A stretch of DNA of 57,385 nt from Deltaproteobacteria bacterium GWF2_42_12 (GCA_001797665.1 MGQA01000109.1:1-57385); one strand, 5' to 3'. Counted from the first letter of the stretch, positions 17,552 to 56,477 are shown. Numbers and translations are program-made. Notes: a model not told the origin generated them from the sequence alone.

Positions 17552-18013
17552 TTACCGTTGCGTAATCTCTATCTTTCTCGTCCTTTCCCCTGTATAAAAA
17601 AATTTAATCAATAAATATCCATGTGGCAAAAAAGAATATGCCTTTTCTGCCCATTCAATTATGCAAACACCATCCCCATAGAGATATTCTTCTATTCCAA
17701 GTTCATATATTTCATTTACATCGCCGAGGCGGTAAAGGTCGAGATGATAAACTGGGAGACTCCCTTCATACTTATTAACAATTGTAAATGAAGGGCTTTT
17801 TACATAGCCCTTTACCCCGAGCCCCTGCACCAATCCCTGTGTAAATAAAGTCTTGCCTGTGCCAAGCTCTCCTGTAAGGGCAACCACATCTCCTACTTTA
17901 AGCCCCTCGCCTATCTTTCTGCCCAATTCTAGAGTTTCCTCTGGCGATGAGGTATGAAATGTTTCGGATTTCGGATTTCGGATTTCGGATTTTTTTTTAC
18001 CTTTTACCTTCAA
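17552..18013 (-). CDS. tsaE: tRNA threonylcarbamoyladenosine biosynthesis ATPase TsaE
   Basis: ALTGELGTGKTLFTQGL P-loop, ..SPSFTIVNKY.., ..HLDLYRL.. TTG start at 18013 preceded by GGTGA. The N-terminal extension is encoded by a heptamer array. Confidence 0.85.
   Translation of the reverse strand: MKVKGKKKSEIRNPKSETFHTSSPEETLELGRKIGEGLKVGDVVALTGELGTGKTLFTQGLVQGLGVKGYVKSPSFTIVNKYEGSLPVYHLDLYRLGDVNEIYELGIEEYLYGDGVCIIEWAEKAYSFLPHGYLLIKFFYTGERTRKIEITQR
17962..17989. repeat. perfect heptanucleotide array (TTTCGGA)x4 followed by T9, inside the tsaE 5' coding region
   Basis: The four units were counted directly from the sequence. They are translated as SEIRNPKSE. Confidence 0.9.
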
Positions 18014-18021
18014 CCTTTCAC

Positions 18022-18900
18022 CTATTTTACATTAATCAGATATACGGCAATAATAGCCGTCAACCCGCCGACAATCGTTGACACCCTCGGCTGTTCACCC
18101 AGAAAGAACCAGCTAAAGACAACTGCACTGGACGGGACTAAAAAGACAAACGAGCTTGCCCTGTGCGAGCCGAGTCGGTTTGATGCGAAAAAATATACGG
18201 TTGTGGCAAGGCCGCTGGATATGACCGAGAGATATATCATGTTGAACCAGAAGAGATTATCCTGACCTGCAATGGATAATGTTCCGTGAGCCAGACAGAG
18301 AAAAAAGAAGAGCACGGCGCAAAAGCCGGATGTAAAAAGATTGAAGAAAAGCGGAGAGATGGAACTGCCCGACTTCTGGCTGCAAATGGTCAGGAGCGCC
18401 CAGAGAACGGCGCCGAGCAAAAAATAAAGATTACCGTGCATAAAAATCTTATTCGCATCCAGCGTCCAGACCTGAAGGAGTATGCCGCCTCCGATAACGC
18501 CTAATGTCAATCCCAGGAAATCTCTGGCTGATATGCTTCGTCTGAAGAATAAAACTGACAAGGCAAAAGTTATGATGGGAATCATCGTGGTAACAAGAAC
18601 GCCTGCTGCTCCGGCAAAACCATATGTCAAACCCTTAAAAAACACATAGAGGTAAAGCCCCATGAAAACAGAGCCTAATATCGTATAGACAAGACCATGT
18701 CTGTTGAGTCTGACCGGCTCTTTCAGAAAAAGCAAGATAGGGGCTAACGAAATAAAGGTAATGATAAATCTCCAGAAGGTGAGGGTTTCAGGAGGCAATG
18801 TATCGGCAATGGCCTTTGCCGAAACCCAGCTCCCGCCCCAGATAATCATGGAAATGACCATGAAAAAAACGAATAAAAAAGTTTTGTTTGAGGTATTCAT
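18022..18900 (-). CDS. DMT superfamily (EamA-like) transporter
   Basis: 292 aa with 10 hydrophobic segments arranged as two EamA-like halves. Confidence 0.75.
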   Translation of the reverse strand: MNTSNKTFLFVFFMVISMIIWGGSWVSAKAIADTLPPETLTFWRFIITFISLAPILLFLKEPVRLNRHGLVYTILGSVFMGLYLYVFFKGLTYGFAGAAGVLVTTMIPIITFALSVLFFRRSISARDFLGLTLGVIGGGILLQVWTLDANKIFMHGNLYFLLGAVLWALLTICSQKSGSSISPLFFNLFTSGFCAVLFFFLCLAHGTLSIAGQDNLFWFNMIYLSVISSGLATTVYFFASNRLGSHRASSFVFLVPSSAVVFSWFFLGEQPRVSTIVGGLTAIIAVYLINVK

Positions 18901-18942
18901 ATCACCTTTTCATCTAACGGTTATTGGAAAACTCTCTTGATT

Positions 18943-19010
18943 GTCATTGCGAACGCAGAGAAGCAATCTTATTTTGCGGGGATTGCCACGGGCTTCGCCC
19001 TCGCAATGAC
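18943..19010. repeat. GTCATT...AATGAC palindromic element, copy 2; supplies the nnr C-terminus and stop
   Basis: GTCATTGCGAACGCAGAGAAGCAATC...GATTGCCACGGGCTTCGCCCTCGCAATGAC with perfect 10-bp termini. The nnr reading frame ends at 18969 inside it (tail ..NVIARAKPVAIPAK). Confidence 0.65.
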
Positions 19011-20681
19011 ATTCTTTTTATTTCTCGACGGCAGATCATCTATAAAGAAGCCAATCACCTTTGGCAAAATATTAAGAATGTCTGTTGCAATCATCCCCAC
19101 CTGCCCCTTTTTTTTCGCCACCTCATCACCTGCAAGACCGTGCATATACACAGCTATCGTGGATGCATCAAGAGGGGTATATCCCTGGGCAATAAAACCA
19201 CCTATCATGCCAGCCAATACGTCGCCTGTGCCTGCTGTTGCCATGCCAGGATTTCCTGTGGGGTTTATAAAAATTTTCCCAGAGGGCTCTGCAATAACCG
19301 TTCTTGCCCCTTTCAGCACCACGATAACCTTATTCTCTTTTGCAAACCTTGATGCTATGCCGAGCCTGTCTGCCTGAACATCCTTTGCCGTTAAACCAAC
19401 GAGCCTTGCCATCTCTCCGGGATGGGGCGTAAGAACAATCGGGGCTTTAGCCTTTTTCAAAACATTCACCCCCACACCAAAACTTTTGGTGTGGGGGTTT
19501 ACATCATCAACAAAGCAATTTATGCCATCAGCGTCAATGACTAAAGGAATCTTCGACGCAACAATGAGTCTTAAAACAAGCTTCTTCACGGATTCTTCGG
19601 CTGTAAGTCCGGGGCCAAGCACAACCACTTCTTTATCTTTAATAAATCGCAGTATGCTGTCAATTGCCTCATACGCAAGTATACCTAACCCCCCTTTTCC
19701 CCCCTTTGGTAAAGGGGAGACTATGGGGAGTTCAGGCAAAGGCAATGTCATAACCTCTGTTAGCTTTCTTGCCATAACTTGATTGAGGCTTTTTGGAATA
19801 CCCAGGGTAACAAGGCCAGCCCCGCATCTCATTGCGCCAAGAGATGTCATTGCGGCAGCGCCGGTCTTTCCAACAGAGCCGGCAAGAACAAATACATGGC
19901 CATAACTTCCTTTATGCGTATTGCCATACCTTGGCTTTAAGATTTTTTTTATTACCTCACGGTCAAGGAGTTCCCAACGAATCTTCTCATCTTTGAGAAG
20001 CGGCTGCGGCATACTGATATCAACCGCTTCAACCCTTCCTGCATAATCTACACCAGGATAGATTAAAAGCCCTATCTTTGGAACCGCCATTGTTGCTGTT
20101 ATTGTTGCCTTCACGCAACTACCCAGAACCCTGCCATTTGAGGCATTAAGGCCAGAAGGAATATCAACGGATACAACCGGTTTGTTGAGGCTATTTATGA
20201 ACTCTATAACATCCTTTTGAATCCCTTTTATATCTGCTGAAAGTCCTGTGCCAAAGATTGCATCCACAATCAAGCTTGAATGTCGTATAGCAGATTTATA
20301 TTTCTTTAAGCCTTTTGCTGATAAAATCTCTATTACCTCTCCGCCCATCTTTTCCCATATATTCAAATTTACCTTCGCATCGCCTTTAACATCTCGTCTT
20401 TGTGCGAGCAGGTAGACGCATACCTTAAAACCCTTATTGAGCAAATGCCTTGCTACAACAAACCCATCGCCGCCGTTGTTTCCTTTACCTGCAAAAATAG
20501 AAATCCTTTTGCCTTCGTATGGGAGGGGCTTGTCCCCTCCCGTAAGGCCGCCAAAATCCCTCTCAATAATCTCAGCCGCACCCCTGCCTGCATTCTCCAT
20601 GAGCACAAGCCCGGATATGCCATACTCCTTTATGGCCTTCTCATCCAACTGCCTCATTGTATCTGAATCAACGATTTTCAC
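18969..20681 (-). CDS. nnr: bifunctional NAD(P)H-hydrate repair enzyme (epimerase / ADP-dependent dehydratase)
   Basis: 570 aa. YjeF_N motif FAGKGNNGGDG. C-terminal carbohydrate-kinase motifs HKGSYGHVFVLAGS and GTGDVLAGMIGG. GTG start with AGGAGG upstream. Confidence 0.9.
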   Translation of the reverse strand: MKIVDSDTMRQLDEKAIKEYGISGLVLMENAGRGAAEIIERDFGGLTGGDKPLPYEGKRISIFAGKGNNGGDGFVVARHLLNKGFKVCVYLLAQRRDVKGDAKVNLNIWEKMGGEVIEILSAKGLKKYKSAIRHSSLIVDAIFGTGLSADIKGIQKDVIEFINSLNKPVVSVDIPSGLNASNGRVLGSCVKATITATMAVPKIGLLIYPGVDYAGRVEAVDISMPQPLLKDEKIRWELLDREVIKKILKPRYGNTHKGSYGHVFVLAGSVGKTGAAAMTSLGAMRCGAGLVTLGIPKSLNQVMARKLTEVMTLPLPELPIVSPLPKGGKGGLGILAYEAIDSILRFIKDKEVVVLGPGLTAEESVKKLVLRLIVASKIPLVIDADGINCFVDDVNPHTKSFGVGVNVLKKAKAPIVLTPHPGEMARLVGLTAKDVQADRLGIASRFAKENKVIVVLKGARTVIAEPSGKIFINPTGNPGMATAGTGDVLAGMIGGFIAQGYTPLDASTIAVYMHGLAGDEVAKKKGQVGMIATDILNILPKVIGFFIDDLPSRNKKNVIARAKPVAIPAK

Positions 20682-20828
20682 CCGTTAGACCTCCTGTCCC
20701 CATCAGATCCCTTTCTTATATGAGAAATTTTAAAAACGCCATCGTAAATACTCAAAAAGGTCTAACGGGGTTCATGGTTTGAAAAAAATATCACACTCAA
20801 CATGGTTTTGCAATTTTAAACACTCTCC

Positions 20829-20853
20829 GTAAAAATCAATGTCTATTTTTGGG
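20829..20853. repeat. second copy of the AAAAATCAATGTCTATTTTTGG hairpin
   Basis: GTAAAAATCAATGTCTATTTTTGGG, which is 22 nt identical to 6665-6686. It lies in the divergent nnr / tRNA-Lys spacer. Confidence 0.6.
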
Positions 20854-24764: not shown

Positions 24765-24885
24765 TTCATGCTGAAAAATTCATCATGAACTTGATTACAC
24801 AGATTACAATCAGATTACGCCGATTAAAGATTTAGTTGTCAACCATTCTTCAGTGGCAACTAAATAGGTCTTTTCTTTTATAAAA

Positions 24886-26233: not shown

Positions 26234-27268
26234 CTACGCTTTATAACAAGCTACTAAATGCCCTTTTTTAATTTCTACCAACTCCGGCTCATGTTCTGTG
26301 CAGCCAAAATCTGCCTTTGGGCATCGGTCATAGAAAGTGCATCCGGCTGGAAGATTCAGAAGCCCCGGCACTGTTCCCGGGATTGTTTTCAAAAGACCCC
26401 TGCCTCCCATTTCCCCTTGTTTTGTAGGGGAGGGGCTTGTCCCCTCCAAAGGGGAGACCACAAGGGTCTCCCCTACGCTCTCCATTGTGGGCAGAGAGTT
26501 GAGAAGCCCGATAGTGTATGGGTGCATCGGTTCTGCAAATAAAGTTTTTGTATCCGTATACTCCACAATCTTGCCCGCATACATCACTGCAACATCATCT
26601 ACTGTCTCTGCAACAACGCCGAGGTCGTGGGTTATGAGAATCATAGCCATATCAAGCTGCTTTTGCAAACCTTGTATCAATTCCAGAATCTGCGCCTGAA
26701 TCGTGACATCAAGGGCTGTTGTAGGCTCGTCTGCTATCAAAATACTGGGATTGCACGAAAGCGCCATGGCAATCATGGCCCTCTGCCTCATGCCGCCGCT
26801 CATCTGGTGCGGATAGTCTTTTATCCTTTTTTCAGGCGAAGGGATGCCCACCAATCTCAGGGCATCTATGGTCTTTTCCATGACTTCATTTTTATGCAGA
26901 CTCTGGTGCAGGGTAATGGCTTCGGAAATCTGGTTGCCGATAGTCAGCACAGGATTGAGTGATGTCATGGGCTCCTGAAAAACCATTGCAATCTCAGCGC
27001 CCCGTATCTTCCGCATCTCATCTTCAGAAAGCTTTAGCAGGTCTTTCTCTTTATAAAAAACCTCCCCACGCACAATTCTTCCGGGAAAAGATACAAGTCT
27101 CATAAGGGAGAGCGCTGTAACGCTCTTTCCGCACCCGCTCTCTCCTACAAGACCGAGGGTCTGGCCTTTCTCAAGGCTAAAGCTCACCCCGCGCACAGCC
27201 TTTACCTCGCCTGCATCGGTAAAGAATGATGTGTGGAGGTCGGTTATTTTAAGTAAGGGGGTTGGCAT
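26234..27268 (-). CDS. oppD: oligopeptide/dipeptide ABC transporter ATP-binding protein
   Basis: Walker [10 protein letters not shown], signature [15 protein letters not shown], Walker [13 protein letters not shown] and C-terminal ..[11 protein letters not shown]. Carries a repeat-derived insertion. Confidence 0.85.
26395..26475. repeat. double-hairpin insertion inside oppD
   Basis: GGGGAGGGGCTTGTCCCCTCC (26427-26447) followed by GGGGAGACCACAAGGGTCTCCCC (26451-26473). The first hairpin recurs at 20521-20541 inside nnr. Translated as ..[24 protein letters not shown].. Confidence 0.65.
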
Positions 27269-27274: not shown

Positions 27275-30200
27275 TTACTGGTGAAATTCAATAATCTCTT
27301 TTTCAATACCAGGATATACGTTGTCTATCTGAGCCTGAATCTCTATTGTTTTCTTCAGGACAGCAACTATCCCGCAGTAATGTTTTATATCATCAAGAGA
27401 CAGCACCCTGTCTTTCCTATCCTTGAGCCATTTATCCAGAACCTGATAACCGCCGATCCGGTATTCCCAGACCTCCGGCAGTATGCCTTCAAAATACTGT
27501 TCCTTGTTTATAAAGAGATTGCCTTTTTCGTATTTCAGCTTCTCAACTTTATCATTCCCCTTGCCCTGGAATTTTGCAACCGGAGTATCAATCTCCGATG
27601 TCTTTAAAAGATGCAACTCAATAAGCCTTTCCCCATAGCCAGCCATCTTCTTAAAGAGTTTATAATCCTTTGTAAAGGGAATCCTTGGAAAATCTATCTT
27701 TAAGAACTCTGCGTATTTTGTGCGGTAGGTGTTTGAATAAAGGATAGCATAGATATAATAGAAGATTTGCTCTGGGGTAATGTATTGTTTGTCATTCCCG
27801 TGAAAACGGGAATCCATATCCTTTTCTCTGGATTCCTGCTTCCGCAGGAATGACGAATCATGAATAAATGATTTTTTATACTCTTTCGTCAATTTCTCCA
27901 CCAATGCAGGAGAGAGATTTGGCTTCTTTGCCGTATATTCTGCCTGCGGCTCAAAGAGCATCATGGTGCTGCCAAAAGAGCGTTTTTTAGGTTTGTCTTT
28001 TTGCTGGTAAAGGTAGAGGGGGAAAATGTAGCCTGTTTCCCTGGTCTTGAGTGAAACGAAACACATATCTGCAACCTTCTTGGTTACAAAAGCGTGTAAA
28101 AAGTCCATAGTGGATAATTGCCTTGTTACACAAATTCCAAGGTTGTCCTCAAAAAAGTTTTTCATCAAACCCCATCGGTCACATCCTCTGTCAATTAAAT
28201 CTTGGATATAGCAAATCTGCCTATCATCAAAGGGGCGATAAGAGTAAGGTCTTATGTATTCTTTCCAGTCTATTTTCTTTAGGCTCTCTCTTGCAGTTTT
28301 TAATTTCCAATCTCTTGTGTCTTTTAAGTTTAAACTCTGGGCAGCAAGTTCATCAGGCAGATTGCTGACAAAAGTTCGCATTTTTTGTTTGACCTCCTCT
28401 TCTGTGAAGCCTACTAAAAAATGGTCACGATGAGTTTTCACCCCGCTTGAAGACTGAATGAATATGCCTTGAATGGGAATAAATTTTTTATATTTTGCTT
28501 GTTCTGAAAAATCCTTTTTAACAAAGAAATAATAAGGCTCGGTCGGTTGCAACTTAAACCATTTTGTTGAATCAGTAGCATACTTATTTAGATATTCATG
28601 TTTCTTTTCCCGAATGCCATAGACATCCTGATAGAAAACTTTGCCATGACCTTTCTGTTTTTTATCTTTAACAAAGATAGCAATCGAAACCCCTTGCTGA
28701 ATATCAAAGACATTTTCATCCTTGCTTCCATCAGAACATCTTTCGCCAATGCGACTGTTTCCATGAATGTTGAGAATATAAATCTCATTAAAACTTTCCA
28801 ACAAGCGCTTACGCATGCCTCGGTGAATTAATCCTGAAAGATAGGAGTTGTTAGTAATCATCCCGATAATACCTGTGCCGGCATTATCTATTTTCCAGTG
28901 CGCAAATCGGATGAATTTAATGTAATCATCAGACAAAGGCTGGATGTTTCTTTCGTCACGAACATCTTCTTTATATACGTCCATTTCTTTTTCTATAAAC
29001 TTTGATTTATTTGCAGAACTAACTGAATACGGCGGGTTGCCGAGGATGACCAAAATAGGCTGCTCCTTTTTGATTTTGCCTGCAAGATGGGATTCTTCTG
29101 AAAGAGATGCCATGCCGGGAAGTTCAGTCTGCGAGAGCTCTTCCATCTCAAGGGTATTGGTGAGATAGAGTTTGAACCTGTCATCCCCCTGCAATCCGTA
29201 ACCCAACTCTTCAAGAAGAAAAGACATCTTTAAATGACCAATAGCATAAGGCGCCATCATAAGTTCAAAGGCGTAGAAGTTTTTAAGGATATGCTCTTTA
29301 ATAAAACCTGTCTTCTTTCCTTCTCCGTATTTTGATGTCCACTCCTCCATTGCCAGCTTCGCAGCCTCTGCCAAAAATGTGAGCGTCCCCGCAGCAGGGT
29401 CTAACACAGTAACTGACTGATTTGCGAAGCCGTCCTTTTTATTGAAATACTCTTTTAAGATATGATGAAGGGAGCGAACGATGTATGAGACCACAGGCTC
29501 CGGCGTGTAATATACGCCTCTCTTTTCCCGTGTCTTTGGGTCGTATTCAGCAAGAAATGTCTCATAAAAATGGACAATGGGGTCTTTGCCTTTATGTTTG
29601 TTAAAATACTCATCAAGTATCTTATAAACATTTGTTGTAGCCAGAACATCTGATATGTCATCAATAATCCATTCCATCTGCCGGGGCAAATCGCCCAACG
29701 AGATGAATCTGAATACATCTCTTAATATGCCTATTGTCCGGGGAATCTTATCGTATGCGAGTTTTCTGTTAAAACCGTTTTCTGTGCGGGTTCTGGCAGC
29801 AAAGAGACCGTAGGCGATAGTTTGCGAATAAAGGTCTGCAAAGTCCTCCTTTGTCAGCCCGCTTATAAGGTGCTCTTTAAACGCCTTATAAAAACCGAGA
29901 ATGTTCCCTTTCCCCTTTTTTTCTTCTTCTTCCAACTCCTGTGCAATCACCTCATCCTTTAAAAAGCGAGTCCTCTTTGCAAGCTCTATTGCTAATGCTT
30001 TGGCATCATAGACCTTTGGCAAAGAAAAAGAGAGGAATTTTTCCAATAGATTACAAAAATCCTTTTCTTTCTCAACCGGCGGGACGGTCTTGAGTTTGTG
30101 AATGACATACGGCCGCGCAATCTGGGCTTTATCAATTAACTGGCCATTGCGGTAAAGTCTGAATTCAAAAAAATTAGTTAATATGAGGTTGGGAAAGGTA

Positions 30201-30523
30201 TGAAGGTAACGTTTTAACTGCTCGGTTTCTTCTATCTGGTCCAAATATTCAACCCCCCGATATCCCCCCTTATCAAGGGGGGAAGTAAAGGGGGGTGTCT
30301 TTGCCTCAATATATCCTACTATCTGCTGTTTTCCATCCCATATTCTGAAATCAGGGTTGCCGGCATCGGTTTTTTTAGGCAGGGTTGTAATGTCTACATT
30401 TTCCCTGTTTATTGAGTCAGCATAATTTGTTAAAAGCTCCTCAAGGCACGAATAGTAGCTCTCTTCCCTTGCATCGCCTCTATTTGCAATATCAGATATG
30501 CGTTTAAGATATGATTTCAGCAT
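27275..30523 (-). CDS. fused endonuclease / N6-adenine DNA methyltransferase / target-recognition enzyme (type IIG, MmeI- or type ISP-like), paralog 2, embedded in the opp operon
   Basis: 1082 aa. N-terminal NPDF..x..GYIEAK (PD-ExK-like). Motif I VLDPAAGTLTF. Motif IV ILGNPPY. C-terminal IFYYIYAILYSNTYRTKYAEFLKIDFPRIPF. Collinear with the 1174-4251 protein block by block but strongly diverged. Confidence 0.8.
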   Translation of the reverse strand: MLKSYLKRISDIANRGDAREESYYSCLEELLTNYADSINRENVDITTLPKKTDAGNPDFRIWDGKQQIVGYIEAKTPPFTSPLDKGGYRGVEYLDQIEETEQLKRYLHTFPNLILTNFFEFRLYRNGQLIDKAQIARPYVIHKLKTVPPVEKEKDFCNLLEKFLSFSLPKVYDAKALAIELAKRTRFLKDEVIAQELEEEEKKGKGNILGFYKAFKEHLISGLTKEDFADLYSQTIAYGLFAARTRTENGFNRKLAYDKIPRTIGILRDVFRFISLGDLPRQMEWIIDDISDVLATTNVYKILDEYFNKHKGKDPIVHFYETFLAEYDPKTREKRGVYYTPEPVVSYIVRSLHHILKEYFNKKDGFANQSVTVLDPAAGTLTFLAEAAKLAMEEWTSKYGEGKKTGFIKEHILKNFYAFELMMAPYAIGHLKMSFLLEELGYGLQGDDRFKLYLTNTLEMEELSQTELPGMASLSEESHLAGKIKKEQPILVILGNPPYSVSSANKSKFIEKEMDVYKEDVRDERNIQPLSDDYIKFIRFAHWKIDNAGTGIIGMITNNSYLSGLIHRGMRKRLLESFNEIYILNIHGNSRIGERCSDGSKDENVFDIQQGVSIAIFVKDKKQKGHGKVFYQDVYGIREKKHEYLNKYATDSTKWFKLQPTEPYYFFVKKDFSEQAKYKKFIPIQGIFIQSSSGVKTHRDHFLVGFTEEEVKQKMRTFVSNLPDELAAQSLNLKDTRDWKLKTARESLKKIDWKEYIRPYSYRPFDDRQICYIQDLIDRGCDRWGLMKNFFEDNLGICVTRQLSTMDFLHAFVTKKVADMCFVSLKTRETGYIFPLYLYQQKDKPKKRSFGSTMMLFEPQAEYTAKKPNLSPALVEKLTKEYKKSFIHDSSFLRKQESREKDMDSRFHGNDKQYITPEQIFYYIYAILYSNTYRTKYAEFLKIDFPRIPFTKDYKLFKKMAGYGERLIELHLLKTSEIDTPVAKFQGKGNDKVEKLKYEKGNLFINKEQYFEGILPEVWEYRIGGYQVLDKWLKDRKDRVLSLDDIKHYCGIVAVLKKTIEIQAQIDNVYPGIEKEIIEFHQ
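27791..27854. repeat. GTCATT...AATGAC palindromic element, copy 3, in-frame inside RM paralog 2
   Basis: GTCATTCCCGTGAAAACGGGAATCC-atatccttttctct-GGATTCCTGCTTCCGCAGGAATGAC, two hairpins. Translated as SSFLRKQESREKDMDSRFHGNDK. Confidence 0.7.
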
Positions 30524-31389: not shown

Positions 31390-31545
31390 GGGAGAGTGGG
31401 GGAAACGGGGAAACGGAGAATATGAAAAACACGAATCGGGGAATCGGAGAATGGGGGAATGGGAGAAAGATTTTTCCCCGTTTCTCCGTTTCTCCCGCTC
31501 TCCGATTCTATCCTTTGTCTCCCATTCGCCGATTCTCCGATTCGT
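31390..31545. repeat. palindromic array of octamer repeats in the oppB-oppC spacer
   Basis: G-rich arm GGGGAAAC GGGGAAAC ... GAATCGGG GAATCGGA GAATGGGG GAATGGGA. C-rich arm CCCCGTTTC TCCGTTTC ... GCCGATTC TCCGATTC. Confidence 0.6.
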
Positions 31546-31552
31546 ATTTCCT

Positions 31553-32527: not shown

Positions 32528-32537
32528 ATGCAAACAA

Positions 32538-32653
32538 TGTCAAATGTCAAAGCTCAAAATTCAAATGAAATTTAAAGCTTAAAGTTCAAATTAATTTACA
32601 TTTGGTTTTTAGTTTTGACATTCATTTGATATTTGGATTTTGACATTTGGATT
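32538..32653. repeat. palindromic array of AT-rich heptamers in the oppA-oppB spacer
   Basis: GTCAAAT GTCAAAG CTCAAAA TTCAAAT ... faces CATTTGA TATTTGG ATTTTGA CATTTGG. Confidence 0.55.
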
Positions 32654-39447: not shown

Positions 39448-39469
39448 GCTATGCTTAAACCTCCTATAT

Positions 39470-40623: not shown

Positions 40624-41875
40624 TAATAATAGCAGCTAATGTAAAGGTAAGCACTCCATACGTTTCTTCCCAGAGACCATTCGTTATATTTAACATTGCA
40701 TAGGATATTAATATACCCGGGATGCCATATTTTGCAAAATCACCGCCATATCTCGCTTCAACAAAATAAAGTCTTAAAATTTTGACAACAAGTGTAATCC
40801 AGAACATAAAAAAGGCGATTAATCCCAATATGCCTATTTCGAATATAATCTGTAATATCAAATTATGTGGATTTGCGCTGCCGTAACCGGCGCTTTTAAA
40901 ATAGTTATATGTCCCTGGCAATTCATTCCTCCAATTATCCAGAAACTCCTCATCTTTTGCAACAGTAGCAAGCTTTTTCCATCCATAACCATAACCAATA
41001 AAAGGTCTTTCCTGGATTATGTCAATCATACCCTTCCAGATATCCAGCCTGCCGCTTAGCCCCTCATTTGTTGTAAATGTCTTAATGGAAGCAAGAGTAG
41101 CATACCTGTTAAAAAGTTCGGGCTTCTTTAGATAGCTTACCGCGCCAACAGACATTATAACCACGAGGATAAGCATTAGTATCAGATATTTTCTGGAAAT
41201 AATTAACATAAAGATTGTTGCCAATACTATCGCCATGATAGATGTTCTTGAATTATAATAAAGCCACACAAGCACAAATTCCGCCGCCACTGCTGTCCAT
41301 AATAACAATTTAAGCATAATCTTATTTCTTGAACAAAGAAGATAGCTGATTGCAAATGGCATGTAAAATGCGGCATTGATAGCATAACCGCTCAGGAATG
41401 TATCTCTGGATTCTTTTAATTCATTTATAGAATTCAGTAAATCTGCTATAGGGCTTCGTATAAAAATTATTATCGTCAGAGTGACAAAACTTATAATTAA
41501 GCAATAAAATAATGACTCAAGCCTATTCCTATCTCGAAATTCTGTTAAAATTACAAAAAATGCTACTAACTGATAAAAGAAATTTTTTCTAAATGCATTA
41601 AGGCTTTCTCCACTGTAATTACTAAATAGTATGCTAATTAATATAGTGGAAAGGAGTATTAGGAGTATTATTATAGTGCCGTCTTTCCAATTTATATCAA
41701 TGCCGCCTCGCACTGTTTTTATAAGAAAAAGCACCAACATTAATACAAATGCCGTATTTCGTATACCCGCAAAATGGTTGAATGGCTGAAAAAAGATATA
41801 TATTAAGAGAAGAGGCGGTATTAAGCTAAGCGCTTTTGTCTCATACTTTAACCATAATCTGCGAAGCAAGACCAA
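40559..41875 (-). CDS. O-antigen ligase (Wzy_C/WaaL) family membrane protein
   Basis: 438 aa with about 11 TM segments. Periplasmic loop RLDIWKGMIDIIQERPFIGYGYGW and later NPHNLILQIIFEIGILG are typical of Wzy_C. Confidence 0.7.
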   Translation of the reverse strand: MVLLRRLWLKYETKALSLIPPLLLIYIFFQPFNHFAGIRNTAFVLMLVLFLIKTVRGGIDINWKDGTIIILLILLSTILISILFSNYSGESLNAFRKNFFYQLVAFFVILTEFRDRNRLESLFYCLIISFVTLTIIIFIRSPIADLLNSINELKESRDTFLSGYAINAAFYMPFAISYLLCSRNKIMLKLLLWTAVAAEFVLVWLYYNSRTSIMAIVLATIFMLIISRKYLILMLILVVIMSVGAVSYLKKPELFNRYATLASIKTFTTNEGLSGRLDIWKGMIDIIQERPFIGYGYGWKKLATVAKDEEFLDNWRNELPGTYNYFKSAGYGSANPHNLILQIIFEIGILGLIAFFMFWITLVVKILRLYFVEARYGGDFAKYGIPGILISYAMLNITNGLWEETYGVLTFTLAAIIIVIYEKNTEGKYKENTPNPTR

Positions 41876-42983
41876 ACACCTCCTTCACGCTTATGCGAGT
41901 GATACATTCTCTATGTCCATACCTGCATTCATATGGGGCATCAAAGGCATGCGAACATGGTACGCAGCCCAGTTCTTTCTTCTGCAGGATGTAACTATTT
42001 TTGCCTGTCGGCCTCTGGTCTTCCATATCAGAGGGTCCGGCAATATCAATCAACGGTACGCCTAATGCGTCGGCAATATATGTAACACCTGTATCTACGC
42101 CTATAAATAGCGACAACTTCTCCAGTAGCGCAGGCAACTCGCTAAGCCTAAAGCATCCTACAGAATCAATTATTTTTTCTTTCTGTGTTGCCATAGTTAT
42201 TATTTTACCGGCAGTTTCGCTGTCTGAGCTTGAACCGATAAGCACTACGTGCGCGTTAAATTCAGTTATCAGCTTTTCCGCCAAGGCAACTATCTTCTCA
42301 GCGCCCAATTCCTTCATTTTGTTTCCACTGGAGACGGCTATTCCTATCAGGTTTCCATCCCTTCCTGAAAGCAGATTTTTAACTTTAACATCCGCTATGG
42401 GTGATTTGTAGACCTCTTTGGATAGATTGTTGCTTTTTATTCCAATGGCCTCCAGCATTTTTAAATTAGTCTCAGCAACAAGCCTTCCCCTTATATGCCT
42501 TTCAAGATATGTGCAAAAACGAGAGGCCATCTTGTATGTAATTCCGACAAAACTTGTCCCCGCAGGCTTTAAGCGGGGATCAGGCATAATAAATATTCTG
42601 CGAGATACCAGCCCCCAGAAGGCGGACAGTAGGAATGGTAAAGAAGGATTAAGTGATATAACTGCGTCATATTTGCCTTTATAGAGCATTACTGCTAAAT
42701 TTATCTTACCCGACAGCCCCTTATATGAATCTCTGTTAAGCGATATGAGCTCGTTTATATATGGATTATACTCAAGAACCTCTCTGCTAACAGGGCTAAC
42801 CATCACTGAAAGATGAACATCTCCTAAGCCTTTCTTTATCTCTCTAAATATATGTGTTGAAGAAATAATATCGCCAATCTTTGCAGTCTGGATGACAAGG
42901 ATGCGCCTTATATTTACTCTTCTGAAATAAATTAGCGCGTAAATAAGCGGCGACAACAGGTAGGTTAAGATTATATAGAACAC
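41841..42983 (-). CDS. glycosyltransferase family 9 (heptosyltransferase-like)
   Basis: ILVIQTAKIGDIISSTHIF.., ..VDTGVTYIADALGVPLIDIAG.., Cys-rich tail GCVPCSH...C..GHRECI. Confidence 0.7.
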   Translation of the reverse strand: MFYIILTYLLSPLIYALIYFRRVNIRRILVIQTAKIGDIISSTHIFREIKKGLGDVHLSVMVSPVSREVLEYNPYINELISLNRDSYKGLSGKINLAVMLYKGKYDAVISLNPSLPFLLSAFWGLVSRRIFIMPDPRLKPAGTSFVGITYKMASRFCTYLERHIRGRLVAETNLKMLEAIGIKSNNLSKEVYKSPIADVKVKNLLSGRDGNLIGIAVSSGNKMKELGAEKIVALAEKLITEFNAHVVLIGSSSDSETAGKIITMATQKEKIIDSVGCFRLSELPALLEKLSLFIGVDTGVTYIADALGVPLIDIAGPSDMEDQRPTGKNSYILQKKELGCVPCSHAFDAPYECRYGHRECITRISVKEVFGLASQIMVKV

Positions 42984-48690: not shown

Positions 48691-49487
48691 TCTTTACCTC
48701 TAAGTTTAAGATATATGTGTGACAACACAGGAGTTGTATATATCCTCACCCTATTCATAAACCATCGCAGATTATCTTTTACCGCTATTCGCTGTATGCA
48801 AGACATGTCAGACTCTTTTTTGACAACGCCTCTTTTCGTTGTAAATAACGCCTTATAACCAATCTCTCTGGCAATTCTTATTGCATCTTCATTATAAGAC
48901 CCTTTAGGCCAACAGAGATAAGAACAGGTCTTGTCCAATTTCTCTTCAATGATATTCTTTGAATCCCCAAGTTCTTTGGACAGCTCTTCAGGAGGCAGCT
49001 CAGCGCATCTCCTGTGGCTCATAGTATGCGAATAAAATTCTATAAGACCGCTTTCTTTCATCTCTTTTACCATATCCCAGTTCACTACAACCTTATCGAC
49101 CCGACCGGCTGCTATGAATTCTTTACCTTCATGGTGAGATGGCAATATTATCTCTTGCCCCTTGCCCCTTGCCCCTTGCCCTTTTGACGCTGCCTCCACC
49201 CAAGCAACAACGATAAAGATTATAGCCTTGATATTATATCTTTTTAAGATTGGAAATGCATATTGGTAATTATCGAGATAACCATCATCAAAAGTGATTG
49301 CGACAGCCTTTTTAGCAGTTTCCATATTCCCGCTAATAGATTTAACTAACTCGTCTGCACTCAAAGTTCGACACCCTGTCTCCGCCAAAAATTTCATTTG
49401 CGCCTCAAAGATGTCGGGGACCACGGTTACCATATCATCTTTATTGGGGTTTACGTGGTGGTACATAAATACCGGGATAGGCCTCAT
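48687..49487 (-). CDS. polysaccharide deacetylase (carbohydrate esterase family 4, NodB fold)
   Basis: NodB motif 1 AITFDDGYLDNY. His motif YSHTMSH. Later CWPKGSYN. Confidence 0.8.
   Translation of the reverse strand: MRPIPVFMYHHVNPNKDDMVTVVPDIFEAQMKFLAETGCRTLSADELVKSISGNMETAKKAVAITFDDGYLDNYQYAFPILKRYNIKAIIFIVVAWVEAASKGQGARGKGQEIILPSHHEGKEFIAAGRVDKVVVNWDMVKEMKESGLIEFYSHTMSHRRCAELPPEELSKELGDSKNIIEEKLDKTCSYLCWPKGSYNEDAIRIAREIGYKALFTTKRGVVKKESDMSCIQRIAVKDNLRWFMNRVRIYTTPVLSHIYLKLRGKE
49154..49181. repeat. perfect heptanucleotide array (CTTGCCC)x4 inside the CE4 deacetylase gene
   Basis: The four units were counted directly and are followed by TTTT. Translated as KGQGARGKGQ. Confidence 0.9.
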
Positions 49488-50590: not shown

Positions 50591-51732
50591 CAGTTTATTT
50601 TAAAGCGATTACTTATTATCTCCATAACCTCATCAACGCTTATATCTTCAAGACAGTCACTTACCTTGCTACCCTCACAGCCATCCTTGCCACAGGGAAT
50701 GCAGTCCCAATCTCTCTGGATTACCGTATGCCTTCCAAAGGTCTGCACCCCATTCCTTCTTTGATAAGGTTCTTCTTGCCCCTTGCCCCCTGCCCCTTGC
50801 TCCCTATAGTCATTGTCCCACGGCCCCCAGTGGAATGCCCCTGAAGGGCCAAAGAGCGCTACGACAGGCGTTCCAACAGCAGCGGCAATATGCATTGGCG
50901 CTGAATCTACGCCAAAAAACAACTTTGCCCTTTTTGAAATTGCGCCAAGTTTTTTAAGGCTTATATTACCTATGAATGTAATCGGCTTTTTTCGGGCCAA
51001 TTCAACAATTTTGTTTGCCTTATCCATCTCTCTTTTATCAGGGCTGCAGGTCATGATAACCTTAGCTCCATACTGCTCCTGGAGACGGTCAATCACTTCG
51101 GCCATATATTCATCTTTCCAACATTTAAAAAGCCAGCGGGAGGTGGGATGAACATGGACAATAGCATCGCCTTCTTTAACCTCTCTTTTTGTTAAGGTAT
51201 TGGTCAACCATATTTCATCTTCTTTTGAAATATAAAAATCAACATTTAGAGTTTTTGCTTTTATACCAGCCTTGTCTAACAACTCAACATTCTGTAAAAC
51301 TGTATGTCTGTCTGCGTTAACAGCAAATCTATGTGTATATAAAAATTTTTTACCCCAAAAACCTCCGCTTGTCTCATATCCTATCCTATACCTTGTTCTG
51401 CTTAAAAAAGAATATATCGCAGGTCTGTCTCCCCCGGTCAAATCTATTGCCATATCAAAGTTTTCTTTCTTAATGATATTTAAGAAAGAGAGTTCATACT
51501 TTATCCGCTTGGATAGAGATTGTTTTAACAAAGACCTGTCTAAAATAAACACTTTGTTAATAAGTGCATTACCCTTAAGCATATCCTCTGTTCCTGAATT
51601 TACTAACGCTGTGATGTGACTATCAGGGAAGGTATCTCTAACCGCTCTTATGGCAGGTATAGCAAGCAGAACATCGCCGATATGTCGAAGTTTGATGACA
51701 AGGATTTTCTTTACATTTCTAAATTCAGTCAA
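50590..51732 (-). CDS. glycosyltransferase family 9 (heptosyltransferase)
   Basis: ILVIKLRHIGDVLLAIPAIRAV.., ..VDSAPMHIAAAVGTPVVALFG.., Cys-rich tail CIPCGKDGCEGSKVSDCL. Confidence 0.8.
   Translation of the reverse strand: MTEFRNVKKILVIKLRHIGDVLLAIPAIRAVRDTFPDSHITALVNSGTEDMLKGNALINKVFILDRSLLKQSLSKRIKYELSFLNIIKKENFDMAIDLTGGDRPAIYSFLSRTRYRIGYETSGGFWGKKFLYTHRFAVNADRHTVLQNVELLDKAGIKAKTLNVDFYISKEDEIWLTNTLTKREVKEGDAIVHVHPTSRWLFKCWKDEYMAEVIDRLQEQYGAKVIMTCSPDKREMDKANKIVELARKKPITFIGNISLKKLGAISKRAKLFFGVDSAPMHIAAAVGTPVVALFGPSGAFHWGPWDNDYREQGAGGKGQEEPYQRRNGVQTFGRHTVIQRDWDCIPCGKDGCEGSKVSDCLEDISVDEVMEIISNRFKIN
50775..50802. repeat. degenerate heptamer array (CTTGCCC CTTGCCC CCTGCCC CTTGCTC) inside GT9
   Basis: Counted directly. 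Translated as EQGAGGKGQEE, between the GPSG..HWGPW block and the Cys-rich tail. Confidence 0.8.
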
Positions 51733-52544: not shown

Positions 52545-52548
52545 AGGT

Positions 52549-52621
52549 TAGTTGATTAGCGAATTAGTGATTAGAGAATTAGCTTTTCTAATTCACTAAT
52601 TCTCTAATCCTCTAATCAACC
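52549..52621. repeat. palindromic array of GATTAG-type 7-8-mers between Trm112 and GT2
   Basis: TTGATTAG CGAATTAG TGATTAG AGAATTAG C-tttt-CTAATTCA CTAATTCT CTAATCCT CTAATCAA. Confidence 0.6.
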
Positions 52622-52782: not shown

Positions 52783-52878
52783 ATACACCTCCCATAAATA
52801 TAGACAAAAGTCGGAAGCCTGCCCCTGCAGGCGTTAAGCAGGGGTCAGAAGTCAATAGTATAAGAATAAACTTTTTAA

Positions 52879-52995
52879 CTCCTGACTCCTGACTTTTGAC
52901 TAATGACTATTCTCTTGACTCCTGACTCTCGACTCCTGACTTTTGACTAATGACTATTCTCTTGACTCCTGACTCTCGACTCCTGACTTTTGACT
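52879..52995. repeat. 47-bp tandem repeat (about 2.4 copies) built from TGACTCC-type heptamers
   Basis: GACTTTTGAC starts at 52891, 52938 and 52985, giving a period of 47. Sub-units are TGACTCC TGACTCT CGACTCC TGACTTT. It overlaps the 3' end of the UPF0104 gene. Confidence 0.85.
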
Positions 52996-53939: not shown

Positions 53940-53950
53940 ACGCCTTTCCT

Positions 53951-54907
53951 TTATTTTAGAATTTTTCTGATAGTATAAATGGCCTTACTCTGAGATTCAT
54001 GATAAACCCTTGCAAGCATCTCACCTAAAAGCCCCATTACAACAAGTTGCGCACCGAGGATTATAAGAAGAACAGCCAAAAGAAGAAGCGGTCTGCCGCC
54101 TATTTGATAACCAAGCGCAAGTTTAGCATAAGTAAGATATAAAGATATTAAAAAACCTATTCCACCCAATACTAATCCTGGTGTGCCAAATGCATGAATG
54201 GGTCTCGTTGAAAAACTCTGAAGGAATTTTACAGTTAGCAAGTCTAATAAGACTCTTAAGGTTCTTGAAATGCCATATTTAGACTTTCCAAATCTTCTGT
54301 GATGATGTCCTACAACCTCCTCTGTAAATGTTGCGCCTATCCAGTTTGCAATAGCAGGTATAAATCTATGCATCTCACCATATAATCGTATATTCTTCAC
54401 TACCTCCTTCCTATAGGCCTTAAGCGTGCAGCCATAATCATGCAAATAAACGCCTGTCACCTTCGAGATAAGATAGTTTGCTATCATTGACGGCAGTCTT
54501 CTTGAAAAAAACGGGTCTTTTCGATTTTTTCTCCACCCGCTCACCACATCATACTCCTTAGCCTTTTCTAAAAGTCTTGGAATATCTTTGGGGTCATTTT
54601 GCAAATCTGCATCCATGGTAACAATAATTTCCCCCCTGGCATAGTCAAAGCCAGCAGCCATAGCCGCAGTTTGTCCAAAATTTCTTCTAAAACTTATGAC
54701 AACAACATTATTATCAATTTTTTGGATACTACTAAGGAGTGAGAAGGTATTATCCGCGCTCCCATCGTCAATGAAAATAATCTCATATTGCAAGCCGGTA
54801 TCATCCATTACATCTTTTATAGCCTTATAAAGTATGGGCACACTTTCTTCTTCGTTATAGACCGGCACTATTATAGAAACTGTCTTCTCAGACAAAATAT
54901 CCTCCAT
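53951..54907 (-). CDS. polyprenyl-phosphate glycosyltransferase, GT2 (ArnC/GtrB/DPM1-like)
   Basis: VSIIVPVYNEEESV.., ..IFIDDGSADNT.., ..MDADLQNDP.., two C-terminal TM helices. Confidence 0.85.
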   Translation of the reverse strand: MEDILSEKTVSIIVPVYNEEESVPILYKAIKDVMDDTGLQYEIIFIDDGSADNTFSLLSSIQKIDNNVVVISFRRNFGQTAAMAAGFDYARGEIIVTMDADLQNDPKDIPRLLEKAKEYDVVSGWRKNRKDPFFSRRLPSMIANYLISKVTGVYLHDYGCTLKAYRKEVVKNIRLYGEMHRFIPAIANWIGATFTEEVVGHHHRRFGKSKYGISRTLRVLLDLLTVKFLQSFSTRPIHAFGTPGLVLGGIGFLISLYLTYAKLALGYQIGGRPLLLLAVLLIILGAQLVVMGLLGEMLARVYHESQSKAIYTIRKILK

Positions 54908-54911
54908 TTAC

Positions 54912-56477
54912 TTAATAAGTATTAACATACTTTGTATCTATCCCTTTGAAATCATAACATCTATATATTGTAGCTTTCCTGACTATTAGATTGCCTCTAT
55001 ATGAATTAAAAATTGGTTCTTTCTCACAACTTTTAAAGGCATTCTCAACCAAAATATCAAGCTCTGCATCTCCGCCTTTTACATACACAGCATCCTTACC
55101 TTTTAATGTATTGAAACCACCCCAGATGTCGTATTGGTTCATTCTCCTATCGCCTAAGTTTATATTGTATGTAACAGGGTTCTTGGGAACATAAAATGCC
55201 AACTCACTCGCCATCTGATAAGTATCACTAAAAATAAACGCCTCGTTCTTTCTTGACATGTCATGATAAATATCGCCCACCTTCAACCCCAGTTCTTTCC
55301 AGGCTATAATGCGATTTATAGGGGCCTTGGCTTCAAGGTTTCTTATGCCAACAAATTTAAGGAGTCCTGGGAAATAAGTAACCATTACTGTCAAAAAACC
55401 AATAAATAACGATATTGCAAATATTATTTTAGCCATTTTTTTTGTATATAAGTATTCATAAATGCCAATCGACGCAAATACCGTAAAATACGCTGGCGCT
55501 GCCCAGTTTGCCTCAACCTCTGCCTGAAGACTCTTAAATAAAAAAAACAAAAAAACAGGCACTGACGTAAGAAAAAGAAGCAGATAATCTTTTTTCCATT
55601 GCTTGAAACCTATGACACCGGTTTTAAATATGCCATACATAGAAATGAGAAAAATAAATGGCGTAAGAAGGCCAAGCTGAGAGCTTAGAAATTCAACAAG
55701 GGATACACCTGATAACATAAAACCTCTTTCAACATGCGCATGCCCCATTGTATGCCGGACAGTAACCCAGTCTTGCTGACTATTCCAAATAATTACCGGA
55801 CTAAAGATAAAAAGGCTTATGAGAACAGCAATATAAGGCTCTTTTTTCCTAAACCAGAACCTATCCTCCTTTGAAAAAAAGAGATAGAGAAAAAGACATG
55901 GAAAGATAAGAGCCATTGTGTATTTACTCAAAAGACCTATACCAATTGAAACGCCAACGAGATACCACCAGATTTTGGATTGTGGATTTTGGATATTAGA
56001 TTTAAAGTTTGCAATTTGCAATTTGCAATTTGCAATTTTTTCTTCTCTCACTGCCTTTCTGAAAAAATATATCGTAAGTCCCCAAAATAAGATGAGCGGG
56101 GCATCTGTTGTCATGAGAACAGAACCGGCGGCATATAACGGTGTCAGCGATGGCATCAATCCAGCAAAGAAACCAGCCCTCTCGCTATCGAATATCTCGC
56201 GAGCTAAAGCGAATAATATTAAAGAGACTATCACAGCAATGATTACCGAGCCGAGCCTAACAGAAACCTCATTGTTACCGCCAATCTTTGTAAAAAAGGC
56301 TATTATATAGGCAATCGCCGGGCCTTTACTGTAATAACTCAAGTCTAACCTTCTTGACCATTCCCAGTAATGAGCTTCGTCAGCAGAGAGATCAAATGGC
56401 CCCTGCCAGATATAATAAATACGAAATATCGTTATAAATATTAAAAATATAAAAAAATTTTTTTTATTAAAAGGCAT
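54912..56477 (-). CDS. ArnT-like polyprenyl-phosphate-sugar dependent glycosyltransferase (GT39/GT83 fold)
   Basis: 521 aa. N-terminal loop DLSADEAHYWEWSRR..YYSKGP, more than 10 TM segments and a soluble C-terminal domain. Carries a repeat-derived insertion. Confidence 0.8.
   Translation of the reverse strand: MPFNKKNFFIFLIFITIFRIYYIWQGPFDLSADEAHYWEWSRRLDLSYYSKGPAIAYIIAFFTKIGGNNEVSVRLGSVIIAVIVSLILFALAREIFDSERAGFFAGLMPSLTPLYAAGSVLMTTDAPLILFWGLTIYFFRKAVREEKIANCKLQIANFKSNIQNPQSKIWWYLVGVSIGIGLLSKYTMALIFPCLFLYLFFSKEDRFWFRKKEPYIAVLISLFIFSPVIIWNSQQDWVTVRHTMGHAHVERGFMLSGVSLVEFLSSQLGLLTPFIFLISMYGIFKTGVIGFKQWKKDYLLLFLTSVPVFLFFLFKSLQAEVEANWAAPAYFTVFASIGIYEYLYTKKMAKIIFAISLFIGFLTVMVTYFPGLLKFVGIRNLEAKAPINRIIAWKELGLKVGDIYHDMSRKNEAFIFSDTYQMASELAFYVPKNPVTYNINLGDRRMNQYDIWGGFNTLKGKDAVYVKGGDAELDILVENAFKSCEKEPIFNSYRGNLIVRKATIYRCYDFKGIDTKYVNTY
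56008..56035. repeat. perfect heptanucleotide array (TTTGCAA)x4 followed by T5, inside the ArnT-like gene
   Basis: Counted directly. Preceded by ATTTTGGAT-tgtgg-ATTTTGGAT (55972-55994). Translated as KIANCKLQIANFKSNIQNPQSKI. Confidence 0.9.

Follow-up and report, generated by a model that had tools for sequence, protein, structure and literature searches.

Very short hairpins and heptamer runs lie in frame within many conserved genes of a groundwater bacterium

The contig of 57,385 nucleotides from Deltaproteobacteria bacterium GWF2_42_12 (GCA_001797665.1 MGQA01000109.1:1-57385), the whole of which is called here the window, carries very short repeat elements between its genes and also, read through in frame, inside them. 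Along ~39 kb, 17 in-frame repeat segments were found in 11 of about 34 genes. Fifteen of these had been named in a prediction made from the sequence alone (the original prediction), and for all 15 the coordinates, sequences and peptides were confirmed, in frame in minus-strand open reading frames (ORFs); the other two are new, and the density claimed at that time, one coding copy per 4-5 kb, is exceeded. In our view the genome is probably saturated with two very short repeat classes, hairpins (class A) and heptamer runs (class B). Class A consists of GC-rich hairpins of 17-36 nt, many of them without a tag sequence, with inverted doublets of 64-72 nt being common. The hairpins are gained and lost as units between near-identical strains and are depleted in coding relative to intergenic DNA; the heptamer runs undergo single-unit slippage and concerted change.

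The excess of both classes over chance is considerable. The window has 33 perfect GC-rich hairpins whose stem measures 7 bp or more, against a shuffle mean of 3.8 (maximum 8). Nineteen of them are wholly coding (0.38 per kb) and 14 lie in or across intergenic DNA (1.91 per kb), where the density is consequently 5 times that of coding DNA. Perfect tandem arrays of at least three units were of period 7 only, with three observed and none in the shuffles, and Tandem Repeats Finder added imperfect arrays of periods 7 and 8. Single-strand DNA folding produced z-scores from -2.4 to -6.9 for every element except site 2 of the nnr gene (z = -1.0). The intergenic DNA is composed of the same repeat material as the coding inserts, and the claim that the same families occur in both compartments was borne out by CCCGCTWAGCGGG, present in two intergenic copies and one in the GT4 gene versus 0.03 expected, by the 27-nt hairpin family, and by the ends of the element in the hepK tail, which recur in the intergenic DNA at 39448-39579, upstream of GT4. 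When the window was searched with Rfam, three tRNAs were the only matches, with no intron or other known RNA family, so that the hairpins are not a curated RNA family.

Pfam backs all ten gene identities given earlier, namely TsaE; YjeF_N+Carb_kinase (nnr); ABC_tran+oligo_HPY (oppD); N6_Mtase+Type_ISP_C (the second restriction-modification paralogue, RM2); PfkB (heptose kinase, hepK); and, among the envelope genes, GT4, Polysacc_deac_1 (CE4), Glyco_transf_9 (GT9), LPG_synthase_TM (UPF0104) and PMT_2 (ArnT-like). The repeat segments and their intergenic comparators are:

17962-17992, minus strand: tsaE tail, (TCCGAAA) x4.4 at the 5' end, encoding SEIRNPKSE; the TsaE domain starts at aa 22
18969-19041, minus strand: C-terminal extension of nnr, running into a 68-nt inverted doublet GTCATTGCGA...TCGCAATGAC (18943-19010) that gives the stop codon
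19470-19502, minus strand: nnr insert, 33-nt hairpin with a 14-bp perfect stem, peptide DVNPHTKSFGV, z = -5.7; missed by the original prediction
19687-19722, minus strand: nnr site 2, hairpin, peptide SPLPKGGKGG
20516-20542, minus strand: nnr insert, 27-nt hairpin, peptide GGDKPLPY
26407-26478, minus strand: oppD insert of 72 nt, two GTAG-headed hairpins in inverted orientation (REPIN-like) plus spacer
27782-27874, minus strand: C-terminal insert of RM2, ~90 nt, in a type ISP/IIL-like restriction-modification (RM) gene
27791-27854, minus strand: core of that insert, a 64-nt doublet GTCATTCC...GGAATGAC encoding SSFLRKQESREKDMDSRFHGND
30258-30293, minus strand: N-terminal insert of RM2, 36-nt hairpin right after the GYIEAK motif, encoding PPFTSPLDKGGYRG
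37052-37107, minus strand: hepK tail, the C-terminal end of the PfkB-type (heptose) kinase, made up of 51 nt from a hairpin-rich element
38527-38586, minus strand: two-hairpin segment of GT4, GGTGGG...CCCACC twice, encoding KVGSAPQKVQGQNGGQSPPN
38944-38981, minus strand: GT4 heptamers, (CAAAGGG) x5, encoding QRAKGKRQRAKG
39166-39312, minus strand: composite GT4 insert of 147 nt with at least three hairpins, one nested in the loop of another
42553-42579, minus strand: 27-nt hairpin in a GT9-like gene (41841-42983), peptide PRLKPAGTS; missed by the original prediction
49154-49181, minus strand: heptamers of the CE4 deacetylase, (GGGCAAG) x4
50775-50805, minus strand: heptamers of GT9 (heptosyltransferase III), (GGGGCAA) x4.3
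52878-52995, minus strand: array at the 3' end of the LPG_synthase_TM gene, AGTCAGG-type heptamers, 17 units, organised in higher-order repeats of 47 nt (2.4 copies, 52884-52995)
52947-52995, minus strand: UPF0104 (LPG_synthase_TM) tail, the last 49 nt of that array, forming the C-terminal tail and stop codon
55976-56038, minus strand: insert of the ArnT/PMT_2-like gene, 60 nt, (ATTGCAA) x4, spacer and (CCAAAAT)-type x3
11270-11312, no strand assigned: intergenic comparator doublet, GTAG...CTAC inverted hairpins, with the same architecture as the oppD insert
34612-34641 (plus strand) and 52818-52847: intergenic copies of the 27-nt family, which has one further, coding copy in the window

The evidence that the segments are insertions comes from relatives (L numbers) and orthologous proteins (P numbers). 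Length variants were picked from the members of 90% protein clusters and their DNA was then compared. In the orthologue alignments indel boundaries coincide with repeat boundaries, and the cited segments indeed proved to be insertions relative to orthologues. Their position had been given correctly, but the true inserts are usually wider than the limits first drawn (72 nt in oppD, ~90 nt at the C-terminus of RM2, 147 nt in GT4). In nnr, the hairpin at 20516-20542 is the sole indel between the window and L018, which are 99.8% identical over 21.7 kb. Nucleotide alignment of the gene with four relatives gave clean gaps that match the hairpins in position, one of 27 nt (20516-20542) and one of 33 nt (19470-19502), and the latter insert is missing in L009, L010, L012, L014 and the PDB homologue TM0922, itself gapped at the same three nnr sites. 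At site 2 (19687-19722) L009 has no insert; L014 and L010 have a hairpin similar to that of the window, and L012 has a different one. The 72-nt insert of oppD is missing in L020, 99% identical upstream, and in all PDB OppD/DppD homologues.

RM2 behaves similarly. Its 36-nt N-terminal hairpin is missing in most orthologues and in L019 (99.3% identical), where it is the sole hairpin missing; the C-terminal insert is missing in 12 of the 17 aligned orthologues and has a same-site copy in P0335, P0340, P0363 and P0435. Each of the two segments recurs at its site, with a similar peptide, in some orthologues of 69-80% identity, whose distribution is patchy. This recurrence touches the outcome that the original prediction had named as speaking against it, the same conserved segments in orthologues of unrelated lineages, but falls short of it, since most orthologues lack both segments and the 99.3% identical strain lacks the N-terminal one. 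The N-terminal insert (aa 76-88), which several orthologues share, adjoins a conserved D...EAK motif (PDFRIW...GYIEAK), and from its sequence we suspect this to be a putative PD-(D/E)XK nuclease motif of a type IIL/ISP-like enzyme. The other RM paralogue of the window was tried as a reference for placing the inserts and dropped as too distant at 24% identity. Other in-frame peptides of repeat type, e.g. WLSLRGRAEAISKDEIL..., PACRESFLKKDAGQAGM and PPSPPFAKGGLG, were seen in the RM orthologues P0347, P0365, P0435, P0363 and P0452, several of them from Nitrospirota, which indicates that in-frame hairpin inserts are widespread in metagenome proteins beyond the lineage of the window.

Among the envelope genes, GT4 encodes 451 aa, versus ~370-400 aa in orthologues; its segment at 38527-38586 is missing in most of them and is 12 aa shorter in P0122 and P0123. 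The hairpin of the GT9-like gene at 42553-42579 is common to L017 and missing in L015, and L022 (92.7% identical) lacks 51 nt of the hepK tail. Relatives in turn carry in-frame inserts of their own: in L017, two copies of one 27-nt unit in ArnT (inserts of 27 and 39 nt), a 51-nt GTAG doublet in GT9 and inserts of 27 and 72 nt in a GT4 paralogue; in L015, a 27-nt insert in the Wzy_C-domain gene (40559-41875 in the window). When 14 further orthologue sets were compared, six of the nine internal indels of at least 3 aa were hairpin or heptamer elements, and within these sets nine conserved genes, including leuA and aspartate kinase, had no such elements. Individual copies are missing from strains that are 99.0-99.8% identical, and the segments are therefore not ancient. 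Mismatches between close strains are found in clusters at 20547-20571 and 30224-30298, beside sites of hairpin presence or absence, and the RM gene has one more cluster (4 mismatches, 29594-29615).

The best-defined hairpins are those of the 27-nt family, whose 11 copies consist of a YYTGYC 5' tag, a 7-bp stem in which five of the seven pairs change on both sides, and a 9-nt loop. Being nine codons long, such an insert cannot shift the frame. A metagenome pattern scan with CTTGTCCCCG-N9-CGGGGA was discarded: at least 120 matches came from unrelated habitats (e.g. human gut), as expected by chance with 16 specified bases. A GTAG tag heads 9 of 70 hairpins against ~2.7 expected by our own estimate, and the nine include both arms of the oppD insert and the 11270-11312 pair. 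Inverted doublets comprise the 72-nt oppD insert, the 64-nt RM2 core, the 68-nt doublet of the nnr tail and the intergenic pair at 11270-11312, and terminal inverted repeats GTCATT...AATGAC are present on doublets. At the empty and filled sites compared, no clear target-site duplication or common target motif was seen, and the window contains no insertion sequence (IS).

The segments had been described as falling between conserved blocks, which is right for the internal inserts; four of the cited cases are instead tails, at the N-terminus of tsaE and the C-termini of nnr, hepK and UPF0104. In relatives nnr ends ~23 codons earlier (with TAG in L014 and L010) and the window is without that stop, so the tail arose by loss of the ancestral stop and read-through into the intergenic 68-nt doublet. 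The tails of hepK and UPF0104 are repeat DNA between the end of the conserved domain and the stop, and L146 lacks one 47-nt unit of the array at the latter gene. L012 has the same tsaE array, preceded by an ATG; in L014 and L010 the array is degenerate, and the position of the upstream start is kept in relatives. Different gene callers place the start differently (143, 153 or 157 aa), so that translation of these heptamers is likely, not certain. In the window a gene for an EamA-family transporter (18022-18900) separates nnr from tsaE, and the two are adjacent, nnr -> tsaE, in L010, L012 and L014.

All internal inserts are a multiple of 3 in length and stop-free, with the conserved domains in frame on both sides, which argues that they are translated rather than removed. 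The frames of the elements are open in 39 of 51 cases in the sense and 36 of 51 in the antisense orientation, 75% overall, so that the elements are intrinsically ORF-friendly and a landing mostly brings in no stop codon. The inserts of nnr, oppD, RM2 and CE4 are exactly where Pfam and PDB alignments are interrupted. The proposal that the segments occupy surface loops agrees with AlphaFold models for GT4 residues 44-95 and 289-306 and GT9 residues 303-323, which are coil with a predicted local distance difference test score (pLDDT) <50, and fails for the heptamer run of GT4 (aa 156-167), placed in a helix at moderate confidence, unlike the other GT4 inserts.

The hairpins and the heptamers had been taken as one phenomenon, and here the evidence departs from the original prediction: the heptamer runs are a separate phenomenon, that of slippage-prone tandem arrays and not of lineage-specific palindrome insertions. 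Heptamer-encoded peptides occur in the same GT9, CE4 and GT4 loops of many orthologues, including those of other phyla, but the peptides and units differ. For GT4 the orthologues have other heptamer-type peptides or nothing. At the CE4 site L015 has only a short, non-repetitive segment. The run of L021 (94.5% identical) is that of the window with a 27-nt hairpin exactly in its middle; in L017 the same hairpin is nested in the same place, between heptamers of other sequence. The UPF0104 tail of L017 is another case of a hairpin nested in heptamers, and in GT4 one hairpin encloses another. The scripted search for nested hairpins had thresholds that were too strict and recovered only CE4 of L017, the other cases being manual alignments.

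The loop of heptosyltransferase III is the clearest example of unit turnover: it holds (GGGGCAA)x4 in the window and L017, (ATTGCAA)x4 in L024, (ATTTCAA)x4 in Dissulfurispira thermophila, with the peptide ISNFKFQISNYW, and a short remnant in L015. Orthologues were used for this gene, as the PDB alignment of GT9 ends before the insert. Two Dissulfurispira genomes whose flanking DNA is 99.7% identical over 9.2 kb, and whose heptosyltransferase III proteins are 98% identical outside the run, differ at two positions in every heptamer unit; 24 of the 33 mismatches in the gene fall within 67 nt around the run, and the 9.2 kb contain just two indels, each a change by a single unit, one in an intergenic heptamer array and the other in an octamer array. 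L017 is without the ArnT-like insert, at which the Pfam PMT_2 match is divided in two (aa 148). In L146 the ArnT-like gene has three instead of four AATTGCA units, and the 7-nt deletion breaks it into ORFs of 177 and 334 aa; over the 4.4 kb aligned L146 is otherwise the same as the window. The alleles of L146 and Dissulfurispira show that the runs slip by single units, homogenise in concert and can inactivate a gene. Two further contigs carry ArnT-like proteins of 414 aa (P0331, P0332) that are called from Met108 only, with the heptamer run intact, and the N-terminal part of that gene may be disrupted by another lesion. The other short members of the 90% clusters that were inspected (P0300, P0254, P0313, P0314 and others) yielded no further frameshift allele, and several begin or end in mid-sequence, as expected of proteins cut by contig ends. 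Coding arrays have similar unit counts, x4.4 in tsaE, x4.0 in CE4, x4.3 in GT9, x4.4 in ArnT and x5.0 in GT4, and intergenic arrays exist besides; five of the six coding arrays are in envelope genes. A G-quadruplex origin of the preference for four units was rejected, the ATTGCAA, ATTTCAA and TCCGAAA units being AT-rich and incapable of forming one.

We propose the following model for the two classes. Hairpins would land or recombine anywhere and selection would purge the copies that break genes; those surviving in genes have a length that is a multiple of 3, no stop and a tolerant loop or terminus as their site, where they would be translated as a short peptide in which Gly, Pro, Ser or Lys is abundant. 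The GTAG tags may point to a route resembling that of repetitive extragenic palindromes (REPs) and their associated tyrosine transposases (RAYTs) for the tagged subset. Heptamer runs are akin to microsatellites and persist at the same permissive loops of envelope and lipopolysaccharide genes in different phyla while their unit turns over. Inside a gene only the frame-preserving states would be functional and a slip of one unit would create an OFF allele, as seen once. Hairpins would, in addition, insert into the centre of heptamer runs.

Several observations weigh against this model. In the 27-nt family 98.7% of stem cells pair and no slid register comes near, a statistic inflated by the fact that copies were chosen partly for having a hairpin. 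Substitutions cluster beside the indels, with 7 of the 11 L018 mismatches at most 30 nt from the nnr hairpin and most of the 10 L019 mismatches next to the RM2 indel of that strain; alleles may thus be exchanged by short recombination tracts, which fits the clusters at least as well as fresh transposition. The selection filter alone does not fully explain the inserts of RM2 and CE4 found at the same sites in divergent orthologues; their recurrence may call for target specificity or for horizontal exchange. Intact frames are the ground for taking the inserts to be translated. Neither a transposase nor a RAYT gene was found in the window or the annotated neighbouring loci, and the mechanism of hairpin mobility is therefore inferred.

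Recurrent occupation of the same site could reflect target-specific insertion, by a RAYT/IS200-like enzyme with a short motif or by hairpins homing to the centres of runs, and we regard this as a tentative possibility. It would account for the identical 27-nt hairpin that both L021 and L017 have in the middle of the CE4 run despite different flanking heptamers, for the hairpins flanked by heptamer-type peptide in the GT9 orthologues P0003 and P0010 and the GT4 orthologue P0154, for RM2 inserts at identical sites in divergent orthologues, and for different hairpins at nnr site 2 in different lineages; the GTAG tag on a subset points the same way. On the other hand, the window and its annotated neighbouring loci offered no candidate enzyme, the empty sites offered neither motif nor duplication, the automatic nested-hairpin scan gave one case only, and shared ancestry with precise loss, or allele recombination, yields the same pattern. 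A more functional view makes the coding heptamer runs maintained contingency loci in which one-unit slips would reversibly switch lipopolysaccharide and envelope genes (ArnT-like, GT9, GT4 and CE4), e.g. for phage escape; switching would then account for the retention of perfect four-unit runs in the same loops of different phyla. The natural change from four to three ArnT-like units in the otherwise identical strain L146, the one-unit polymorphisms of the intergenic Dissulfurispira arrays, the constant length and perfection of the GT9 run despite its change of unit, the share of coding arrays in envelope genes and the 414-aa ArnT-like variants without the N-terminus are all in its favour. It nevertheless appears doubtful: there is a single OFF allele, the commonest exact protein of the array-bearing genes being found on 35-50 contigs; four units are short for a high slippage rate; envelope enrichment says little where half of the window is an envelope gene cluster; and arrays of the same kind occur in tsaE and in intergenic DNA. 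That both ideas apply jointly, four-unit runs being at once an actively maintained slippage switch for lipopolysaccharide-core and envelope-modification genes, preserved at fixed loops in different phyla by concerted homogenisation, and landing pads for the frame-safe 27-nt hairpin, is rather unlikely; the lineages concerned would be environmental anaerobes, the groundwater 'Deltaproteobacteria' bins and Thermodesulfovibrionia/Dissulfurispira.

Two remaining explanations deny that the inserts are recent additions to working proteins. According to one, the segments do not belong to functional proteins at all, owing to mis-called starts or stops, pseudogenes, assembly artefacts or removal before or during translation. 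The ambiguous tsaE start and the three C-terminal tails, possibly irrelevant read-through, would suit it, but the insert sequences are identical in independent ENA, NCBI, JGI and Logan assemblies, internal inserts that were spliced out or bypassed would not be required to be in frame and stop-free, and Rfam contributed no intron; it is very improbable. The other, to which we assign next to no probability, sees the segments as ancestral low-complexity linkers under functional selection. Orthologues of GT9, GT4 and CE4 in other phyla do have extra residues at the same loops. The view is already contradicted by the absence of individual inserts from near-identical strains, and the peptides at a site are unrelated between lineages yet always repeat-derived, with the same nucleotide motifs in intergenic DNA. 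The model of two saturating repeat classes is the one that we retain.

The window has a G+C content of ~41% and nearly all its genes are on the minus strand. Contigs built independently from many groundwater and sediment metagenomes and bins, among them GCA_003450795.1 DMET01000020.1 (57,548 bp) and GCA_001797585.1, match it at 99.9-100% identity with zero indels. The Rifle and NC_groundwater series include related bins that bear the title 'Deltaproteobacteria bacterium' and whose Nnr is 75-78% identical to that of the window. Two paralogous proteins of ~1,030-1,080 aa with N6_Mtase and Type_ISP_C domains are encoded at 1174-4251 and 27275-30523, with the mutual identity given above; both are without the helicase part of LlaGI/LlaBIII, and among PDB entries of similar length 7lo5 matches best. 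Toxin-antitoxin modules (PIN/PhdYeFM, ParE/Unstab_antitox) stand among housekeeping genes at 12698-13392, 15414-15943, 16777-17480 and 4348-4734.

Further repeats were noted in the intergenic DNA. At 31433-31552 and 32534-32652 (spacers of the opp operon) and at 52545-52616 (after a GT2 gene) an octamer or heptamer array is followed by its own reverse complement; these spacers fold as long hairpins (z = -4.4 and -6.9) and might be terminators or mRNA stabilisers. The 22-nt motif AAAAATCAATGTCTATTTTTGG, read as a small AT-rich hairpin, has three intergenic copies (6665-6686, 20831-20852 and 34657-34678), one ~140 nt upstream of tRNA-Lys and another ~60 nt from tRNA-Cys, and a similar sequence follows nnr in L009. 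Motifs GATTACAC/TTACACAGATT are repeated in three intergenic regions (9294-9327, 14952-14985 and 24793-24826) and may be protein-binding sites. An AGTTTGG-type heptamer run at 6462-6485 lies between tRNA-Leu and tRNA-Cys.

Selfish or slippage-prone DNA of 17-36 nt thus appears to remodel many ordinary proteins of a free-living bacterium, with gain and loss caught among strains >99% identical. This extends the picture known from Rickettsia and Coxiella to far smaller elements and to uncultivated groundwater lineages, and ties together three usually separate literatures, those on REPs and their inverted doublets (REPINs), on cyanobacterial small dispersed repeats (SDR) and short tandemly repeated repetitive (STRR) sequences, and on phase-variable repeats. 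The interest lies in the density of coding copies, the live polymorphism, the turnover of heptamers at the same site across phyla and the natural frameshift allele. As the same heptamer site exists in the cultured Dissulfurispira thermophila (AP022873, complete genome), translation, slippage rates and the mobilising enzyme are open to experiment. In practical terms, the inserts lengthen proteins and produce false low-complexity peptides, and in metagenome bins they disrupt both assembly and gene calling.

Rickettsia palindromic elements (RPEs), to which the segments were first likened, are elements of ~150 bp in ten sequence families, each with a conserved peptide, and are restricted to Rickettsia, according to the summary of Ogata et al. 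(2000, 2002) in PMC10969869; the same summary gives 44 RPE insertions for the whole genome of R. conorii. The likeness holds in that palindromes lie in frame in many unrelated housekeeping genes, are read through, are compatible with the fold and are also intergenic. Length, sequence diversity and host nonetheless place the elements outside the RPE families: the elements span 17-90 nt, with inserts of 27, 33, 36, 51, 60, 72 and 90 nt, only the composite GT4 insert reaching 147 nt, and they are more diverse, far denser (17 in ~39 kb) and accompanied by tandem heptamers. The host, a groundwater metagenome-assembled genome labelled Deltaproteobacteria, and the diverse, short, Gly/Pro-rich peptides are likewise set apart by the descriptions of RPEs.

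Nearer counterparts than the RPEs are REP/REPIN elements, the small dispersed repeats of Nostoc and the four-heptamer elements of Geobacter metallireducens. REPs are extragenic by definition and mobilised by RAYTs, REPINs being their inverted doublets (PMC3116915), and REPs tagged with GTAG/CGTC are described in PMC3733652. The inverted doublets (oppD, 11270-11312, GTCATT...AATGAC) are a shared feature, and imperfect palindromes of 20-40 nt with GTAG on a subset resemble REPs, most hairpins here being untagged. The differences are that 19 of the 33 window hairpins are coding and that no RAYT was found in the window or annotated loci. Heterocystous cyanobacteria such as Nostoc reportedly contain SDR hairpins of 21-27 nt with compensatory changes, nested in STRR heptamer runs and in one another. 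The 27-nt hairpins with covarying stems, their embedding in heptamers (CE4 of L021 and L017, UPF0104 tail of L017) and the nested copies correspond closely to that description. The host here, however, is not a cyanobacterium, belonging to groundwater 'Deltaproteobacteria' and Nitrospirota-like lineages, and the emphasis is on in-frame coding copies.

Geobacter metallireducens has elements of four heptanucleotides with the unit GGGACCG at 49 intergenic and intragenic sites, interpreted as regulatory (Aklujkar et al. 2009, PMC2700814), and the GGGNATC heptamer repeats of Xanthomonas and Nostoc likewise favour four units. About four tandem heptamers at intergenic and intragenic sites are what the window also presents; the units are other ones, and PMC2700814 is without orthologous-site turnover, nested hairpins or frameshift alleles. 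QMITE1 and QMITE2 of Coxiella burnetii insert in frame into ORFs, and enhC is extended at its C-terminus by an element that provides the stop (PMC5896051). The tails of nnr, hepK and UPF0104 parallel that case, whereas the QMITEs are larger families of MITEs (miniature transposable elements with inverted repeats), with ~50 copies each, in an intracellular pathogen. Simple sequence repeat (SSR) contingency loci of host-adapted pathogens are tandem repeats, with a unit that is not a multiple of 3, in lipopolysaccharide and RM genes. A non-triplet unit in a coding region and a one-unit frameshift allele in a close strain, the single case of L146, recall these loci; the runs here have four units only and belong to environmental organisms. 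The present case is one in which features of the RPE, REPIN, SDR and heptamer types are joined in coding sequence, at very high density and in a new lineage.

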